Assembly: GCA_963715295.1 (NCBI GenBank)
Contig: CAVQRP010000007.1
Location: forward strand, 37,330 to 101,329
Direction of reading: 5' to 3'
Length of the DNA: 64,000 nt
From: an uncultured Chloroflexia bacterium
GTDB lineage: Bacteria; Chloroflexota; Limnocylindria; Limnocylindrales; CSP1-4
Position 1 is the first letter of the stretch; every line of letters begins with the position of its first letter. Of the stretch, positions 15,875-40,657 are shown one piece after another. Under the pieces are notes generated by a model, which saw only the letters and a program-made list of their open reading frames with translations, was not told where the DNA came from and did no database searches. Both the position numbers and the translations under genes were made by a program.

Positions 15875-16885
15875 TCAGCCGGGACCCGCTGCCAGCGGGT
15901 CGCCGCTCGAGCGGCGGATGACGAGCTCGGTCGGCAGCACGACCTCTCGTGTCTCACCGTTGGGGTCGGCGGTTCGCTCCAGCAGGAGGGCCACGGCACG
16001 GCGGCCGATCTCGACCGCCGGTTGCGCCGCCACCGTCAGGAACGGGAAGGTGACCATCGCCTGTGGCAGGTCGTCGAAGCCCACCACCGCCACATCATCG
16101 GGCACGCGCAGCCCCAGCTCTTCGAGAGCGTGCAGGACGCCGATGGCGATGAAGTTATTGGCTGCGAAGATCGCTGTCGGGCGCGGCTCGGCCTCCATCA
16201 GCGCCAGTGTCATCTCGTGCCCGCTGTCGATGGTGAACGCCCCCTGTCGCACCTGCGGGGCCGGCAGCCTGGCCTCCGCGAGCGCACGGCTGAACCCGAC
16301 CAGGCGGTCCGTCGCAGTCGGGACCGAGGAGGGACCGGTGAGCGCCGCCATGCGACGGTGACCCAGCGCGGCAAGCAGGCGCCCCAGGCCCAGGGCACCG
16401 GCCTCCGAGTCGGCCCGCACCACGTCCACACCGGCCGTTTCCGGTCGACGGTCGACGACGACGAGCGGCACCCCTTGTTCGCGGCACAACGCGGCAGCGT
16501 CGGCGCAGCTGCCTGCCGGGATGAGGAGCAGGCCGTCGATCTGGCGCTGAAGCAGTGTGCGCACGAGCCGGCGTTCTTCGTCTTCGCGCTGGTCGGTGTT
16601 GGCCAGCAGCAGCGAGATGCCCGCCTCGCGCGCAGCCGTCTCCACCCCCTGGGCCAACAGCGTGAAGAAGGGGTTGGTCATATCCGGCATCAGCAGCGCG
16701 ATGGTGTCGGTGCGCCTGGCACGGAGGTTCCGCGCCACGGTATTGGGCACGTAGCCCGTGACGGCCAACGCCTCCACGACACGGGCCCGCGTGGCGGCGC
16801 TGACGGGTCCGGAGTCGTTCACCACCCGCGACACCGTCATGGGTGAGACCCCGGCACGTTTGGCGACGTCGAGCAGCGTGGGCAC
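15875..16885 (-). CDS. LacI family transcriptional regulator
   Basis: N-terminal HTH MPTLLDVAKRAGVSPMTVSRVVN plus a periplasmic-binding-fold effector domain. Last gene of the sugar-nucleotide operon. Confidence 0.9.
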   Translation of the reverse strand: MPTLLDVAKRAGVSPMTVSRVVNDSGPVSAATRARVVEALAVTGYVPNTVARNLRARRTDTIALLMPDMTNPFFTLLAQGVETAAREAGISLLLANTDQREDEERRLVRTLLQRQIDGLLLIPAGSCADAAALCREQGVPLVVVDRRPETAGVDVVRADSEAGALGLGRLLAALGHRRMAALTGPSSVPTATDRLVGFSRALAEARLPAPQVRQGAFTIDSGHEMTLALMEAEPRPTAIFAANNFIAIGVLHALEELGLRVPDDVAVVGFDDLPQAMVTFPFLTVAAQPAVEIGRRAVALLLERTADPNGETREVVLPTELVIRRSSGDPLAAGPG

Positions 16886-16912
16886 GGCCGTTACCGTCGC
16901 AGATCGGGCACG

Positions 16913-17731
16913 TCAGAACCCGCGCAGGTCGGTGCTGGAGCGGGCCGGCAGGCCCGCGTGTGGGATGCGCCGGAGGACCACGTACTCGATGCCATGGTCG
17001 ACGCAGAACTCGCGCTTCTCAGGCTTGTCGCCATCCTCGTTGACGACGTAGTAGCGGGGTCGGATGTGGTCGATCTCGGGTTCCGCGTCCATCCAACCGG
17101 AACCGGACGATACGAGGCAGGTATGCACCGCGCGCATCGACCCGATCATGTAACGGCGCTCTTCTTCGCGCTGCAGGGGGTGGCCCTCCCCTTTGAGCAG
17201 CGCCACGTTGTGATCGCTTCCGACCACCGCGTACAGCGCTCCGTAGGCGGCAGCATCCATGAAGAAGCGGACGTGGCCCGAGTGCAGCCAGTCGAAGCAG
17301 CCGGTGACGACGACGCGCGGCTCACCAGCCGGCGGCGGAGGCGGGTCCCAGATCGGGAACCCCGCACGCTCGGCCGGACCGACGGTCTGGCAGGGCAGGC
17401 CTGCGGCCACGGCGGCGTCACGGACAGCCGTCTCCGCATCCTCTTCACGCACCACGAGCGTGGTGTGTTCAGCCGCCAGGGTGGCGAGATCTGCGGCCAC
17501 GGGCCGCTCGACGATGGCCGCGCCGGTCACCCAGCGGATCGATCGGGCCAGGAACAGGCGCTCGGCGGCTGGGAACGTGGGCCTCGATCCGGTGAGCTCG
17601 GCGACCAGGTCGTCGGACGGGACCCGGACCTGCAGCGGCCCGTGACGGGACGCCGCCTGCAGGAAGCGCACATCGTCGGATCGAAGATCGTCGAGCGTGG
17701 CCTCCACGACGGCCGTGGGCCGGGTGGTCAT
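16913..17731 (-). CDS. Cytidylyl/adenylyltransferase-like nucleotidyltransferase (RfaE-domain-II/TagD-like) with N-terminal extension
   Basis: HxGH motif VVTGCFDWLHSGHVRFF and VGSDHNV...KGE. Overlaps the GHMP kinase stop. Confidence 0.65.
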   Translation of the reverse strand: MTTRPTAVVEATLDDLRSDDVRFLQAASRHGPLQVRVPSDDLVAELTGSRPTFPAAERLFLARSIRWVTGAAIVERPVAADLATLAAEHTTLVVREEDAETAVRDAAVAAGLPCQTVGPAERAGFPIWDPPPPPAGEPRVVVTGCFDWLHSGHVRFFMDAAAYGALYAVVGSDHNVALLKGEGHPLQREEERRYMIGSMRAVHTCLVSSGSGWMDAEPEIDHIRPRYYVVNEDGDKPEKREFCVDHGIEYVVLRRIPHAGLPARSSTDLRGF

Positions 17732-18530
17732 ACGCGAATGGAGATGGAGGTCGAGCCGGGCGGCGGGTCCTCGGACACGACGATGACGTAGCCGCCGCCA
17801 CAGCCGGAGAACATCGCGCCACGGTAGGCGGCGGCGTAGCCTGCCAAGAGGCCCCGCAGGTCCACGCTGATGGCGGGATGCTCATAGACCTGGGGCAGGA
17901 TGGCGCCCCAGGCACGCGAGCACTCGTTGAGCGACGTACCGAGCGCATCAACGTCCATCGCCACGATGGCCTCGTAGCAGTCGCGCCCACTGGCACCCAG
18001 TCGCGCGATCCAGGCGGGGTCGAGATGCTTCACACCCAGTGGGTCGTAGCCGGCGGGTCGCCCTCCGACGGGCAGCAGGTGGATGACGCGTTCGAGCCAC
18101 TCGACGACGGCAGGGTCGGAGGTGGACTCCACGTGTGACGGAAACCAGCCGCCCTCCACGCCGGCGTCGTAGTCGAGCCGGTTGACGCCGGGATAGATCA
18201 TCCCGCACATGTCCTGCGAACCGGACGGGTCGGTCCGACCCTCGTTCTCGGCACGGTAGAGCTCGCGCACGAGGTCGGCCGGCGGCCGATCGGGCAGTGT
18301 GTCCCCCCACAGCCTCATGGCCACCTTGCGCGTGCCGGTGGCCATGCCGCAGCGGTCCATGAAGCGGCACGGTCGGGCAGCAGCGAACCACCACCATCGA
18401 GCCCGGCGGCTCCGGGTTGTGCCGGGACACGAACGGCTGGTCGATCCAGCCGCCGCCAGCTGCAGGCGGTACGGGAGCCGCCGATCGTGTCCTGTAGTGG
18501 CGAGCGCGCCGTGCCGGCTCCGCCGGTCAT
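17728..18530 (-). pseudogene. GHMP family sugar kinase, frameshifted
   Basis: C-terminal GHMP domain GAMFSGCGGGYVIVVS is in frame. The N-terminus (MTGGAGTARSPLQDTIGG...) is in another frame, with the frameshift near 18370. Confidence 0.6.
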
Positions 18531-18535
18531 CGGAT

Positions 18536-19595
18536 CTAGCCCTCGACGACGCGCTTGCCGGCCTTGCGATCGGCATACTGCTGCTCGATCCAGGCGTAGG
18601 TCTCGGCCAGGCCCTCGCGGAGCGGCGTGCTGGGCTCCCAGCCCAGGACCTGCTGGATGAAGGTGTTGTCGCTGTTGCGGCCGGCCACACCCTGGGGCGC
18701 GTCGAGGTCGTACTCGCGCTCGAGCTTCACGCCGGCGATCTCCTCGACGATCGCTGACCAGGTCGTTGATCGAGACCAGCTCGCTCGAGCCCAGGTTGAT
18801 GGGCGTGGCGATCAGGTCGTCGCAGTGCATGATCATGTCGATGCCCTTGACGCAGTCGTCGATGTACATGAAGCTGCGGGTCTGGTCGCCGTCGCCCCAG
18901 ATGTCGATGCGCATGTCGCCGGTGTCCTTGGCCTCGATCACCTTGCGGCAGATGGCGGCCGGCGCCTTCTCGCGGCCGCCGTCCCAGGTGCCGATGCGGA
19001 CCGTAGACGTTGTGGAAGCGGGCGATGGCGGTCTTCAGCCGCGCTCGGCCCAGTACTCCTGGCAGAACATCTCGCGACATCAGCTTCTCCCAGCCGTAGC
19101 CGCGCTCGGCCATGGCCGGGTAGGCATCGGATTCCTTGAGCGCGCGGACGTCGGGGTCCTTCTGCAGGTCGGTGTTGTAGGCGCAGGCCGACGAGGAGAA
19201 GAAGTAGCGCTGGGCGCCGGCCCGGTAGGCGGCCTCGATCATGTGGGTGTTGATGAGGATGCTGCGCAGGCACTCGACGCGGAAGTGCTCGATGAAGCCC
19301 ATGCCGCCCATGTCGGCCGCCAGGTTGTAGACCTCCACCGCGCCCTCGCACGGCCTCGATGGCAGTTGGCCTCCTCGCTCAGGTCCAGGCAGAGGCTCTC
19401 CACGCCGGGCACGCGCTGATACCACTCGGGCAGCGGCTTCTTGTCGATGGCGCGGATGTTGGTGAAGCCCTGCTCGTGGAAGTAGCGCGTCAGCGCCCCG
19501 GCGATGAAGCCGCCCGCGCCGGCGATGACGATCAGGTCGTCCTTGTTGAGGCCCCGCTTGACGTCGCTACCGGGGATGGTGTCGGTGAACTCCAT
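18536..19595 (-). pseudogene. GDP-mannose 3,5-epimerase (GME, extended SDR), at least 3 frameshifts
   Basis: Near-colinear match to plant GME motifs: IAGAGGFIAGAL, NLAADMGGMGFI, FFSSSACAYN, LKESDAYPA..YGWEKL, RFHNVYGP, IWGDGDQTRSFMYIDDCVKG, INLGSSELVSINDL, GVAGRNSDN..LGW. Spread over four ORF frames. Confidence 0.7.
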
Positions 19596-19715
19596 GGCGT
19601 GCGATGTACCTCTCTCTGTGCGGGACCGACCGGTCCGGGCTGTGGCTTGGAGGTTGGCTGGTGCGCTCGTGTGGGCGAAGCGCACGTAGGCGTGGGGTGG
19701 CATTCGATCAGGTCA

Positions 19716-19733
19716 GGTGGTAACGCTACCACT
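19716..19733. promoter_or_regulatory. LacI/GalR-type operator palindrome GGTGGTAACGCTACCACT (16/18 symmetric, central CG)
   Basis: Fits the TGnnAnCGnTnnCA operator consensus. An extra half-site GTTATCACC sits at 19749-19757. About 120 bp upstream of the GME operon start. Confidence 0.45.
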
Positions 19734-19976
19734 CTGGTCGCTGTTAAGGTTATCACCGCCTGTCAAGGGCTGCCGAGGCCACCCGTCGTCGACCCACTGG
19801 ACCGCGAGGCAGACTCCTGTCACAGCGGACCTCGCGGTGGCGGGGCAGGCAGACTGGGGACATGCTCAGGCCCGTCAGTGTCCGTTACGTACGTGACAGT
19901 CGAACGCCACGTCGACGCTGCGGTCCATCGTCGTTTGGCCCTGCCAACCGCAATACCATCGAAGAGGAGCCGGCTG

Positions 19977-29043: not shown

Positions 29044-29269
29044 GGTGACCGGGTGCGTCGGCACCCGTCGTTCGGCTTCCACAATGACATGACGATCGGC
29101 GAACCGAAAACATTCATCCGCAGCTGGAGGAGATGAAACGCGAATACGGTGACGCCCCGGTCTCGATCGTCGCTATCCCAACGCGTGGCGCGCCCTGGGA
29201 GCCAAACCGCTCGAAGACCCATTGCGACCAAGCGCCTTGTCGAACCCCGTTGACCGGGGAAGTGGGGGC

Positions 29270-30809
29270 ATGGAAGATAGCCACATGGACGAAAGGCTGG
29301 GCGGCCGGTCGACGATCTGGACCCGTCGCCGCTCGCGCCTCGTGGTGGGCGCGTTGATCTTCGCGCTGGCGCCATCGACCGCACTCCCCTTCCTGGTGCC
29401 CGACCTCGCCGCCGTCGCTCGCGCGGACGAGACGTCCGGTCTCTGCGCCGCCAAGCTCGGGCCCTTGCGCCTGGAAGAGGACGCCATGGGCGGTGAGGAC
29501 GGCCCCGGAGGTTGGTCGTGGGTGCGCTGCAGGTATGACGATCCGAGGAAGGGCATCGCCGACTACGCCTCGATCCACGTCACGTGGGTCGAGCCGGGCA
29601 ATCCGAAGCTCGAGTCCGAAATCCACGTGGCGGTACTACTGCCAGACGGGTGACAATCGTGCAGCTGGCCGGCACGACCCTGACGGGTGGGACAAGGTCG
29701 ACTACTCGCTCGTAGGCGAGCGGCACATCGTGGCCTACTGGAGGGCCACCGAGGAGAAGGCCCGCAAACCTGCCAAGAAGCTGGCCGGGCGATTGCATGC
29801 CGCGTTCAAGGACCGTGCCGCCCCGTGTCCGGAGCGTCTGGAGCCGGGGGCGCCGCGGGCGGGCCAGACGGTGACGATCGTGCTGGTGGGCGACCGCGTC
29901 GACGCGCTCAGCGCCGGCGGTGGCGTGGGTGCCGTCATCGACCTCGAGCCCGATGAACGCAATAACCTCGTCGTCTGGGGCAACGGCGAGGTCATCACCG
30001 ACGAATACGTCGGCGCGCGCGGGGTCGTGACCGAGATCGGCCCAGTGGCGACGGGACGGGATGGCGAACGGGCCGTGCTGGTAACGGTCGAGGTCTGGCC
30101 GGATGGCTCGGACGCTGTGCCGGAGCCCGAGGCGACCGCTGTGCCGGAGCCCGAGGCGACCGCTGTGCCGGAGCCCGAGGCGACCGCTGTGCCGGAGCCC
30201 GAGGCGACCGCTGTGCCGGAGCCCGAGGCGACCGCCTGTGCCGGAGCCCGAGGCGACCGCCGTGCCGGAGCCCGAGGCGACCGCCGTGCCGGAGCCCGAG
30301 GCGACCGCCGTGCCGGAGCCCGAAGCGACCGCCGTGCCGGAGCCCGAGCGACCGCCGTGCCGGTGGACGTCGACGGAGTCATCCGCGACATCACCTCACA
30401 GGTGGAGGCTGCCGGGCGTGCCGGAAGTGGGACCGTCGAGGTGAGTGCCGAGGTCATCGCGGGGTTGGCGCGCCTGGTCCCGGACACCGTCACGTGGGTC
30501 CAGCTGCGCGAAGGCAACGCCGAGATCGGCCTCCGGGGTGCCAAGTGGCCGAGCGTCATCCTCGCCCCGCGCATCGACCCGACGACAGGCCAGGTGTCGG
30601 TCGCGGTCGTCGTCGAGGTGAACCTGCCCGTCGTAGGGTCGACGGAGCTGAACGTCAGGCCTCTGCTCGACACGGCCGAGCCGGAGATGTCGAAGCTTCT
30701 GCGTGACGCCGAGGAGGTGATCAACTCGATGGCAGCGGATGTCGGGCTACGGGTCTCCGAGATCAGCATCACGGCCGAGGGCGTGCGAGCGATAGCGTCT
30801 ACCGACTGA
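29270..30809 (+). pseudogene. Repeat-containing membrane-anchored protein with (AVPEPEAT)n array; three frameshifts in this assembly
   Basis: N-terminal TM (LVVGALIFALAPSTALPFLVP). Frame switches at ~29650, and a compensating +1/-1 pair lies inside the tandem repeat. The C-terminal ~150-aa domain has no recognised motif. Confidence 0.55.
30114..30365 (+). repeat. Tandem 24-bp repeat x ~10.4 (GCYGTGCCGGAGCCCGAGGCGACC), encoding AVPEPEAT
   Basis: Ten head-to-tail units. Unit 6 carries +1 C and unit 10 carries -1 G; otherwise only C/T wobble differences. Confidence 0.9.
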
Positions 30810-39015: not shown

Positions 39016-40564
39016 CTACGAGGCGGTCGCCTCGCTCCGGCGGTAGACGACCCCTTCGCCATCCTCGAACCGCAGCTCCCAGCCCGGGTCGGCCTCGATG
39101 AAGGGCCGCAACTGCTCGTCGGCCGCACTGATAGCGACAAGCGTCACCTCCCAGCGGTCGAGGATGTCGGTCCAGTCGGCCCGGCCCCCGATGACGTGCA
39201 GGTAGTCGCCCCAGATCTGGGCATCGAACAGCTCGATGCGCGTGTCCACCATGACCGGCACACCTGGTACCGCCAGCTCGAACCACGAGCCCCACTTCTG
39301 CTCGGCGAAGAGGCGGTCAGCCGGCGTGGCCTCAGCCAGGAGCGTCTCGGTCACACCGCGAGGCGCGTAGCGCACCACGTCCTCTGGCCCGTAGAGTGGA
39401 TGCATGGGCTTCCAGAAGGGCAGCACCGCCACGGCCAGCACGCCCGCCAGCAGGGCGATGGCCGTGTAGCCGACGCCACGCGGCCGATCGAGCCTCGCCT
39501 CGCCCAGGCGGTGACCACGCACGACCAGACCGTCCACGAGGATGGCCACGATGGGTGCCGCGCCGATGGCCCACCAGATCGAGTTGCGCACAGCCATCAG
39601 GCCGAGCAAGGCCAGCCCGGCCAGCCACAGCAGCTGCAGCCACGAGATGACGCGGCCGCGGATAGAGCAGCAACCCCAGCACGAGCGCCACCGAGACGAA
39701 GAAGAAGATCCCGGTGGGCGTCTGCAGCGTGGGCGCCTGCCACTCGGTGACGAGCTTGGCGATGAGCGGGTTGCTGGAGAGCTCCACGACGTAGGCCCAC
39801 ATGTCCAGGCCCCAGGGATGGACGAGCGTGGCCAGCACGCTCAGCACGCCCACGCTCAGGGTGATCGCGGCGAGGCGCGACCGAGCGACCAGATCCTCGA
39901 GGAAGGCCAAGCCGATGGCGGCCCAGCCGATGAAGAAGGAGCCGTGGGTGTTGCCCCAGGCGATCATGAGCAGCGGCAGGAGCCACAGCAGCAGCGGGTG
40001 CTTGCGCCGCCAGGCGAGGATCGCCATGAGCGCCGCGAAACAGAGCACGCCGAAGGTCTGCGACCGTAGCGCCAGGTTGGTGGCCGCCACCACGAAGCTG
40101 CCCAGCGTCACCAGCGAGGCGATGACCTGGCTGGTGCCGCTCGCTCGGCAGGCGGCGTAGACGAGCCCGAAGGTGAGCCCGATGAGCGCAGCGCGCAACA
40201 GGAGCAGCCCGGCCCAGCCACTGGCGTCGAAGACAGCAGCGAAGATGATGCTGGCGCCCCACTGCTGGTTGACCCAGGGCTCGCCCAGGACGGTGAAGGT
40301 GAACGGATCGCTCTCGACGATGCCGCCGGCTTCGAACATCAGCCGGCCGGCCTGGACCTGGTAGGCGATGTCGCCGGTGATGACGGGCGCGAGCATGGAG
40401 GCGACGGCGGGCAGACAGATCGCCAACAGCAGGAATAGCTGCCCGCGGCTGATGGCCCAACGCGACGATGGGGCCGGCGGAGAGGAGTCGGCGGGGTCGG
40501 TGGGGACCGGTCGCCGGGCGCGGGCAGACGTGTCCGGCATCTCGTGCTGAGCCATCGACGGCAC
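39016..40564 (-). pseudogene. Polytopic membrane protein (GT-C-type glycosyltransferase-like), one frameshift
   Basis: About 11 TM in 39650..40564 and a C-terminal soluble domain in 39016..39609 in a shifted frame. WGNTHGSFFIGW motif. Confidence 0.55.
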
Positions 40565-40657
40565 CGTACGACGTGACCAACCCTACCGGACCGGACCCGA
40601 AGGTACCGCCACGACCCTGACGAGCAGGGCCGCTGGGCATCGCCGGCCTCGCGGTCG

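Follow-up and report, generated by a model that had tools for sequence, protein, structure and literature searches.

A LacI-controlled operon joining a GME-type epimerase to a fucokinase-like kinase and a tandem nucleotidyltransferase: a candidate activation route for L-galacto-configured sugars

The window analysed here is a 64-kb stretch of contig CAVQRP010000007.1 from an uncultured Chloroflexia bacterium (69% GC), and its subject is a four-gene operon encoding a GDP-mannose 3,5-epimerase (GME)-type enzyme, a kinase-like protein, a nucleotidyltransferase bearing the HxGH motif and a LacI-family repressor. All coordinates are positions in the window, and the operon strand was read as the minus strand, from 19760 to 15860, by six-frame translation. 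An initial annotation had placed the four genes on one strand, and the translation finds them all there, as follows, together with the elements upstream of them.

18536..19595, minus strand: GME-type epimerase gene; ATG at 19595, stop at 18536, about 352 residues after frame correction
17728..18530, minus strand: fucokinase-like anomeric sugar kinase gene (family length 267-270 residues); its stop overlaps the transferase start (ATGA)
16913..17731, minus strand: tandem cytidylyltransferase-fold nucleotidyltransferase gene, 272 residues, intact
15875..16885, minus strand: LacI/GalR-family repressor gene, 336 residues, intact
19716..19733, no strand assigned: LacI-type operator, an 18-bp near-palindrome GGTGGTAACGCTACCACT; 14-bp core at 19718-19731, TGGTAACGCTACCA on the plus strand, with a central CG
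19749..19757, minus strand: auxiliary operator half-site GGTGATAAC, 8/9 identical to one palindrome arm and 24 nt upstream of the palindrome
19761-19766: TTGACA hexamer; the half-site lies just downstream of it

The initial annotation had read this arrangement as a repressor-gated salvage or activation route for an L-galactose-, L-fucose- or heptose-like sugar. That interpretation is supported and sharpened by the present analysis, which adds a fucokinase signature in the kinase, a pseudo-dimeric architecture in the transferase, a wide distribution of the module and frame breaks in the kinase gene. The fucose/L-galactose type is favored by the kinase signature and the gene neighborhood, and the heptose option is disfavored.

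The epimerase, judged from its sequence, is a GME-type GDP-hexose 3,5-epimerase with all of its catalytic residues. Its likeness to plant GME, proposed at the outset, is borne out by a phmmer search of the PDB, in which the frame-corrected protein matches Arabidopsis GME (2c59, residues 22-345) at E=2e-77 (264 bits; ∼50% identity over 324 residues), against 8e-25 for the next-best family, GDP-fucose synthase. The Pfam match is Epimerase, and the NCBIfam models for Fcl, GalE and ADP-heptose 6-epimerase all score the protein far below their cut-offs (50 bits against a cut-off of 275 for the heptose-epimerase model), which places it on the GME side and apart from GalE and HldD. The motifs GAGGFIAG, SSAC, YGWEK, GGREKAPAA and GVAGRNSDN align with Arabidopsis GME residues. 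The hallmarks of GDP-mannose 3,5-epimerases (GM35E) are the GxxGxxG motif, Tyr-x3-Lys, a catalytic cysteine acid, a lysine base where GMER has histidine, and an arginine near the cysteine that lowers its pKa (PMC8787198, PMC6678494). Every one is found here, including the lysine in place of histidine, and the NAD motif, Tyr-x3-Lys, catalytic cysteine and lysine, and cysteine-tuning arginine are shared with both plant GME and MfGM35E. The latter, from Methylacidiphilum fumariolicum, is the only characterized bacterial GME; its gene adjoins a glycosyltransferase gene, and it was assigned to lipopolysaccharide (LPS) synthesis. Known GMEs are biosynthetic, serving ascorbate, cell wall, LPS and antibiotic production, whereas the epimerase described here heads a LacI-repressed operon in a neighborhood of sugar-uptake and glycosidase genes. 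Such a setting, shared with a kinase and a transferase, implies the reverse direction, catabolic or salvage.

The kinase-like protein belongs to a family of more than 7,300 homologous sequence clusters, all hypothetical or unnamed and without a Pfam assignment. Structural modeling nevertheless recovers the GHMP-kinase fold that had been expected of it: the AlphaFold2 (AF2) model of an intact ortholog, P0002, reaches a predicted local distance difference test (pLDDT) value of 81.6 and a predicted template-modeling (pTM) score of 0.83, and its top Foldseek matches are the heptose kinases HddA and WcbL, the FKP fucokinase and galactokinase (probability 1.0, TM 0.52-0.59). On this model the protein is assigned a GHMP-kinase fold. 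In a profile search, the invariant motif YRLQ[LM]AGGWIDQP aligns with FKP RIDMAGGWTDTP, and a comparison of 30 sequences shows no variation at R22, W29, D31, G104, Q106 and D107. R-x6-W-x-D thus matches FKP Arg592/Trp599/Asp601, and G-x-Q-D (here G-S-Q-D) matches Gly759-x-Gln761-Asp762, the second match being one of motif spacing only. In the FKP structure, Arg592 lies beside the anomeric oxygen, Trp599 stacks on C4-C6 of fucose and Asp601 binds the C3 and C4 hydroxyls, the site being completed by Gly759, Gln761 and the essential Asp762; FKP takes L-galactose and D-arabinose as well as L-fucose, and GDP-L-galactose is among the products it forms (PMC11982464). Like Bacteroides FKP and plant FKGP, the present system would therefore combine a GHMP-fold anomeric kinase, with the same sugar-contact residues, and a subsequent nucleotide activation. 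Unlike FKP, the kinase is about 70 residues shorter, is unknown to Pfam and matches the FKP sequence only at E∼0.9; the activating role of the FKP N-domain usually falls to an HxGH protein of cytidylyltransferase fold, and an epimerase is attached. Only distant fused relatives reach the GHMP_kinases_C model (P0353, 29 bits). The protein is best described, on its predicted structure, as a short, divergent L-fucokinase-type anomeric kinase.

The nucleotidyltransferase carries the anticipated HxGH motif in the form HSGH, together with a Pfam CTP_transf_like match. This match (PF01467, 40.6 bits against a cut-off of 21) covers residues 142-209 only, in the C-domain (17323..16913), where HSGH is invariant and a C-terminal RSSTDLRGF is strictly conserved. 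The N-domain (17731..17324) has lost HxGH, both histidines being gone, and aligns weakly to the same fold in relatives. The AF2 model of the full-length protein (pLDDT 89.7) matches the tandem cytidylyltransferase (CT) domains of human ECT over its full length (TM 0.74-0.76), and single-domain fold matches include HldC and TagD. The enzyme is thus modeled as a tandem-domain pseudo-dimer with a dead N-domain and a predicted active C-domain. It shares with human ECT/Pcyt2 the presence of two cytidylyltransferase folds in one chain as a pseudo-dimer; it differs in its low identity (18-19% only), in the absence of HxGH from the N-domain and in its likely substrate, a sugar-1-phosphate. Although rfaE domain II is the best NCBIfam match, the score falls below the cut-off (TIGR02199, rfaE_dom_II, 63.4 bits against 181.5), and the transferase is not an rfaE/HldC ortholog. 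The family comprises more than 5,700 sequence clusters and is unannotated. In the window and in most loci the protein is a single fused open reading frame (ORF) of about 270 residues; in the closest intact relative (locus L001/L002, 8801-9618 in L001 coordinates), the gene call splits it into two overlapping genes, of 141 and 131 residues.

The identification of the fourth gene as a LacI regulator rests on Pfam matches to both the helix-turn-helix (PF00356, residues 3-48) and the effector domain (PF00532/PF13377, residues 59-327), with Peripla_BP_1, Peripla_BP_3 and Peripla_BP_4 also matching; the protein falls below every NCBIfam equivalog cut-off. Orthologs 57-83% identical occur in the same operon in Chloroflexota. 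The palindrome noted in the initial annotation about 120 bp upstream of the first gene lies 121 nt before the epimerase ATG, and the additional half-site is also present at 19757..19749. The core motif TGGTANCGNTACCA (TGGTA-N-CG-N-TACCA) has one exact match in the window, at 19718-19731; allowing up to two mismatches gives five matches where 0.64 are expected, a number reached in none of 100 shuffles. Across 80 genome loci (1.04 Mb), 72 sites were found at one mismatch or fewer, 43 of them within 220 nt upstream of the epimerase gene and 15 upstream of a lacI ortholog, so that 58 of the 72 sit at one of these two promoters. The usual form in relatives is the perfect palindrome TGGTAACGTTACCA. 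Conservation in orthologous promoters, proposed as a check on the palindrome, is high: among loci with both the epimerase and a lacI ortholog, 38 of 40 have a site within 220 nt before the first gene of the operon, and of the two that lack it, one is truncated by the end of its contig. When lacI comes first, the operator moves with it (L027, L034, L038, L048, L050). Given its conservation in 38 of these 40 loci, the palindrome is predicted to be a real LacI operator.

The surroundings of the operator show further regularities. In relatives the operator is often accompanied, at a distance of 16-23 nt, by another site, full or partial (L005, L026, L048, L050). Ahead of the operator, by 4-20 nt, there is frequently a TTGACA or TGGACA hexamer, a placement that would fit repression by promoter occlusion. 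A consensus promoter scan of the upstream region identified no sigma-70-type promoter, and a repeat search did not report the operator palindrome. In relatives, a second operator-like site, TGGTTACGTTACCA or TGCTAGCGTTACCA, occurs 20-50 nt before the lacI start (L013 at 8664, L015 at 8632, L017 at 8622, L022 at 8226, L030 at 8622; also L018, L028, L029 and L032), which suggests autoregulation from an internal promoter. In the window, this region holds a weak half-site only.

The initial annotation regarded GME as rare in bacteria. This does not hold for the linked module, which is common: a scan of species-level genomes found at least 435 kinase-encoding loci, and a metagenome scan found more than 400 transferase-encoding loci. 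The loci related to that of the window are Chloroflexota metagenome-assembled genomes (MAGs), and the order epimerase-kinase-transferase is kept in Chloroflexota, Verrucomicrobiota, Planctomycetota, Latescibacterota, Armatimonadota and others, at least six phyla in all. Cultured Limisphaera strains (L066/L071) and Opitutaceae are among the carriers. Genomic neighborhoods were counted in 90 loci of at least 8 kb by tblastn with Pfam-checked representatives; simple ORF calls were not the basis of the counts, as high-GC loci contain many antisense shadow ORFs. The kinase is present in 90/90 loci, the epimerase in 85/90, the CT domain in 80/90 and LacI in 60/90. Further partners are a mannose-1-phosphate guanylyltransferase (ManC, 26/90), the sugar-binding protein of a CUT2-type ATP-binding cassette (ABC) importer (19/90), L-fucose isomerase (FucI, 14/90), a GH29 alpha-L-fucosidase (13/90), a FucU mutarotase (13/90) and a Fucose_pyrophosphorylase-domain protein (6/90).

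Two of these associations bear on the nucleotide. All six Fucose_pyrophosphorylase loci are without the CT enzyme, and the two occur together in no locus; the replacement is seen in Acidobacteriota, where the module employs an FKP-type pyrophosphorylase gene. Since this GDP-forming enzyme takes the place of the CT enzyme, a GDP-sugar product is indicated. The GDP-mannose enzyme ManC is encoded either by the next gene after the transferase or divergently across the operator-bearing intergenic region. In seven verrucomicrobial-type loci (L051, L070, L074, L077, L142, L143, L145), a NUDIX hydrolase gene directly follows manC, and its product may be a GDP-sugar pyrophosphatase providing an irreversible exit.

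Kinase and transferase are also joined physically in distant relatives of the kinase family. These include CT+kinase fusions, PNP_UDP_1 phosphorylase+CT+kinase fusions and, once, an L-rhamnose-type mutarotase (rhaM)+CT+kinase fusion, as well as fusions to GT2 or TcdA/B-like glycosyltransferases (P0304, P0311); the fusion proteins are P0246, P0261, P0259, P0289, P0348, P0286, P0353, P0304 and P0311. From these sequences the kinase/CT pair looks like a general unannotated sugar-activation cassette. Two loci additionally carry a divergent paralogous pair a few kb from the main module and on the opposite strand (L065, 5578-6696, minus strand; L072, 10663-11427, minus strand), with a kinase-like protein of ∼33% identity and a CT domain of ∼49%; this pair may be a sister activation system for another sugar.

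Taken as a pathway, the operon would activate an imported L-galacto-configured sugar under repressor control and epimerize it at the nucleotide-sugar level, a reading that we hold at even strength. The kinase would phosphorylate the anomeric carbon to give L-galactose-1-phosphate or a close analogue. The active C-domain of the tandem transferase would then use a nucleotide, most likely GTP, to form GDP-L-galactose; GTP is assumed because of the pyrophosphorylase replacement and the linkage to ManC. The GME-type epimerase, running in its thermodynamically favored direction, would yield GDP-D-mannose. The GME equilibrium favors GDP-mannose over GDP-L-galactose, and the catabolic direction is therefore downhill. 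In relatives, a linked ManC or NUDIX enzyme would finally release mannose-1-phosphate into central metabolism. The LacI protein would bind the TGGTA-N-CG-N-TACCA palindrome at the promoter and presumably be released by the sugar or a pathway intermediate. L-galactose is the proposed substrate because it gives a complete route into glycolysis; kinase, transferase and epimerase are co-located, with the exit enzyme ManC in 26 of the 90 loci and NUDIX in 7.

The closest parallel in logic is the Leloir pathway in its Isselbacher pyrophosphorylase variant, in which an anomeric kinase, nucleotidyl transfer, epimerization of the nucleotide sugar and release of a sugar-1-phosphate likewise follow one another under a LacI/GalR repressor. 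In the present case, however, GDP would replace UDP, a 3,5-double epimerase replaces a 4-epimerase, the sugars would be L-galactose and D-mannose rather than D-galactose and D-glucose, and no protein is orthologous to GalK, GalT or GalE. By analogy, the module may work like FKP salvage joined to a Leloir/Isselbacher-type epimerization. Known bacterial L-galactose catabolism proceeds via L-galactose dehydrogenase (PMC12632266). Full-text literature searches found no description of an epimerase-kinase-transferase operon; the kinase and the transferase are new subfamilies, and the epimerase stands in an unreported context. Read most broadly, soil and freshwater bacteria of at least six phyla might catabolize L-galactose, and possibly L-gulose, by running GME backwards with a new fucokinase-like family, the first GTP-using HxGH enzyme and a dedicated LacI; we consider this wider claim possible, with the balance tilted slightly against it.

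Several observations weigh against the proposed pathway. The module is very common for one that would serve a sugar as rare as L-galactose, and the neighbors GH29, FucI and FucU are usually read as L-fucose genes. Characterized HxGH-family enzymes use CTP or ATP, and we know of none that uses GTP. The kinase-like protein has no match at E≤0.01 in Pfam or NCBIfam, GHMP_kinases_N and GHMP_kinases_C included, and none in the PDB sequence search; its phosphate loop, an invariant Gly/Thr-rich GMATGTR, departs from the GHMP motif II PxGSGLGSS. The roles of the enzymes are read from sequence, fold and context, so that interconversion of GDP-mannose with GDP-L-galactose or GDP-L-gulose by the epimerase is a prediction. 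The window itself contains no ManC, transporter, mutarotase, fucosidase or NUDIX gene in its 64 kb. Finally, six uncompensated indels leave the epimerase gene without a single reading frame in the window, where orthologs are intact, and the kinase gene has about five further indels in its first ∼170 nt, between 18476 and 18368.

Fucose-type neighbors keep two other readings alive. The module could serve biosynthetic salvage, the kinase and transferase recycling external L-fucose or L-galactose to a GDP-L-sugar while the epimerase and ManC together keep the pools of GDP-mannose and GDP-L-galactose in balance for envelope-glycan glycosyltransferases, a role comparable to that of FKP in Bacteroides. 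Salvage of the FKP type is well established in biosynthesis, the characterized bacterial GME is encoded beside a glycosyltransferase, distant members of the kinase family are fused to such enzymes (P0304, P0311), and a supply of GDP-mannose is an equally possible role for ManC. Across 160 loci, however, no glycosyltransferase is a recurrent neighbor of the orthologous module, and the partners that do recur (LacI, an ABC importer, fucosidase, mutarotase and FucI) form a catabolic pattern, which makes salvage of this kind unlikely. Less likely again is a route specific to L-fucose, leading through GDP-L-fucose and a GME-like 6-deoxy reaction to GDP-D-rhamnose (6-deoxy-D-mannose) or a related 6-deoxyhexose. 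It would account for the retained tryptophan that stacks on C4-C6 of fucose and for the classic fucose neighbors GH29, FucU, FucI and an aldo/keto reductase. Yet GDP-D-rhamnose has no known catabolic exit and offers no 6-OH for phosphomannomutase, the frequent linkage to ManC and NUDIX suits GDP-mannose better, and the loci that carry FucI already possess a fucose pathway.

A heptose-type activation in the manner of HddA/HldC/HldD, making ADP- or GDP-heptose, is the least probable of the alternatives, and this reading was rejected on model scores and gene context. The HldE and HddA-HddC systems do share the general design of a sugar kinase, a small HxGH nucleotidyltransferase and a short-chain dehydrogenase/reductase (SDR) epimerase; heptose kinases are among the top fold matches of the kinase, rfaE domain II is the best NCBIfam match of the transferase, and HldC is among its best single-domain folds. 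Against this, the equivalog models fail, at only 50 bits of 275 for the epimerase and 63 of 181 for the transferase (rfaE_dom_II), and the epimerase, matching GME at E=2e-77, is GME-type and not HldD-type. Moreover, the kinase motif AGGW-x-D has the fucokinase form rather than the heptokinase form, and the neighborhood survey, in which no heptose or LPS-core genes lie nearby, reveals a fucose-like context instead of an LPS core.

Whether the operon of the proposed L-galacto-sugar pathway is functional in this particular genome depends on the frame breaks. The initial annotation had called for a frame-corrected epimerase, and mapping by alignment to the intact ortholog (locus L001/L002; 3.7 kb aligned at 80.6% nucleotide identity) and 14 relatives confirms the need: 1-nt insertions lie near 19371, 19349, 19075, 18997 and 18755, with a deletion near 19037. 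The approximate indel sites in the kinase gene are ∼18476, ∼18455, ∼18386, ∼18375 and 18368. No indel falls in the final 630 nt of the kinase gene, nor anywhere in the 1.8 kb that encode the transferase and LacI. The relatives of the window are mostly nanopore MAGs of one project, with the isolate label 'MFD'. Among 37 nanopore MAG loci of this project, the epimerase is frame-broken in six (L004, L013, L015, L026, L040, L044), the CT domain in two, and the kinase and LacI in one each; a frame-broken epimerase was never found in short-read assemblies. A metagenome scan for a near-identical strain gave a best match of only 73% protein identity.

We consider it probable that the roughly 11 indels are nanopore consensus or assembly errors. 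No other gene of the locus comes near the epimerase in conservation (74-88% protein identity across phyla), and a plausible cause is therefore that polishing cross-maps reads of co-occurring relatives onto this most conserved stretch. The competing explanation, that the locus is a decaying remnant, with genuine pseudogenes for epimerase and kinase and an operon that has lost its function in this genome, is distinctly less probable, though it deserves somewhat more weight than the salvage reading above. In its favor are the number of frame-breaking indels and the private substitutions in the epimerase: 19 changes at codon positions 1 and 2 that are invariant in the 14 relatives, found throughout the gene and also ahead of the first indel. 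The corresponding count is 1-5 in most relatives and 14 in one on a long branch. Private-substitution counts in the kinase, transferase and lacI genes are unremarkable. Decay fits poorly with damage that ends abruptly within the kinase gene and leaves the downstream genes clean, with the repeated breakage of the epimerase in MAGs of the same nanopore project and not in short-read assemblies, and with isolated frameshifts elsewhere in the window; cross-mapped reads on the most conserved stretch fit this pattern. The case would then illustrate how consensus errors in nanopore MAGs accumulate in the best-conserved gene of a locus.

Two other places in the window also show frame changes. A membrane-protein gene (39019-40582, minus strand) shifts frame at ∼39.64 kb between two long overlapping same-strand ORFs, which looks like an isolated single-base frameshift from long-read consensus error. 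A 24-nt tandem repeat (30113-30363, plus strand; 10.5 copies, 97% matching), inside the ORF 29358-30806, is translated as EPEATAVP, then ARGDRRAG and then EPEATAVP again, corresponding to two frame changes within the array; the preceding ORF 29153-29650 may be the same gene in another frame.

The relevance of the proposed pathway is to carbohydrate biochemistry and soil microbiology, and it is limited by the damage seen in two key genes of this sequence. If true, the pathway would be a new way of catabolizing sugars through their nucleotide forms, one that parallels the Leloir pathway in the GDP series and pulls an L-sugar into mannose metabolism, and its enzymes would be useful for making GDP-L-galactose and other L-sugar nucleotides. 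It would assign functions to two large unannotated families, the kinase-like and the transferase clusters, and would account for the handling of L-galacto-configured sugars from plant and microbial glycans by the uncultured Chloroflexota, Acidobacteriota and Verrucomicrobiota that abound in soil.

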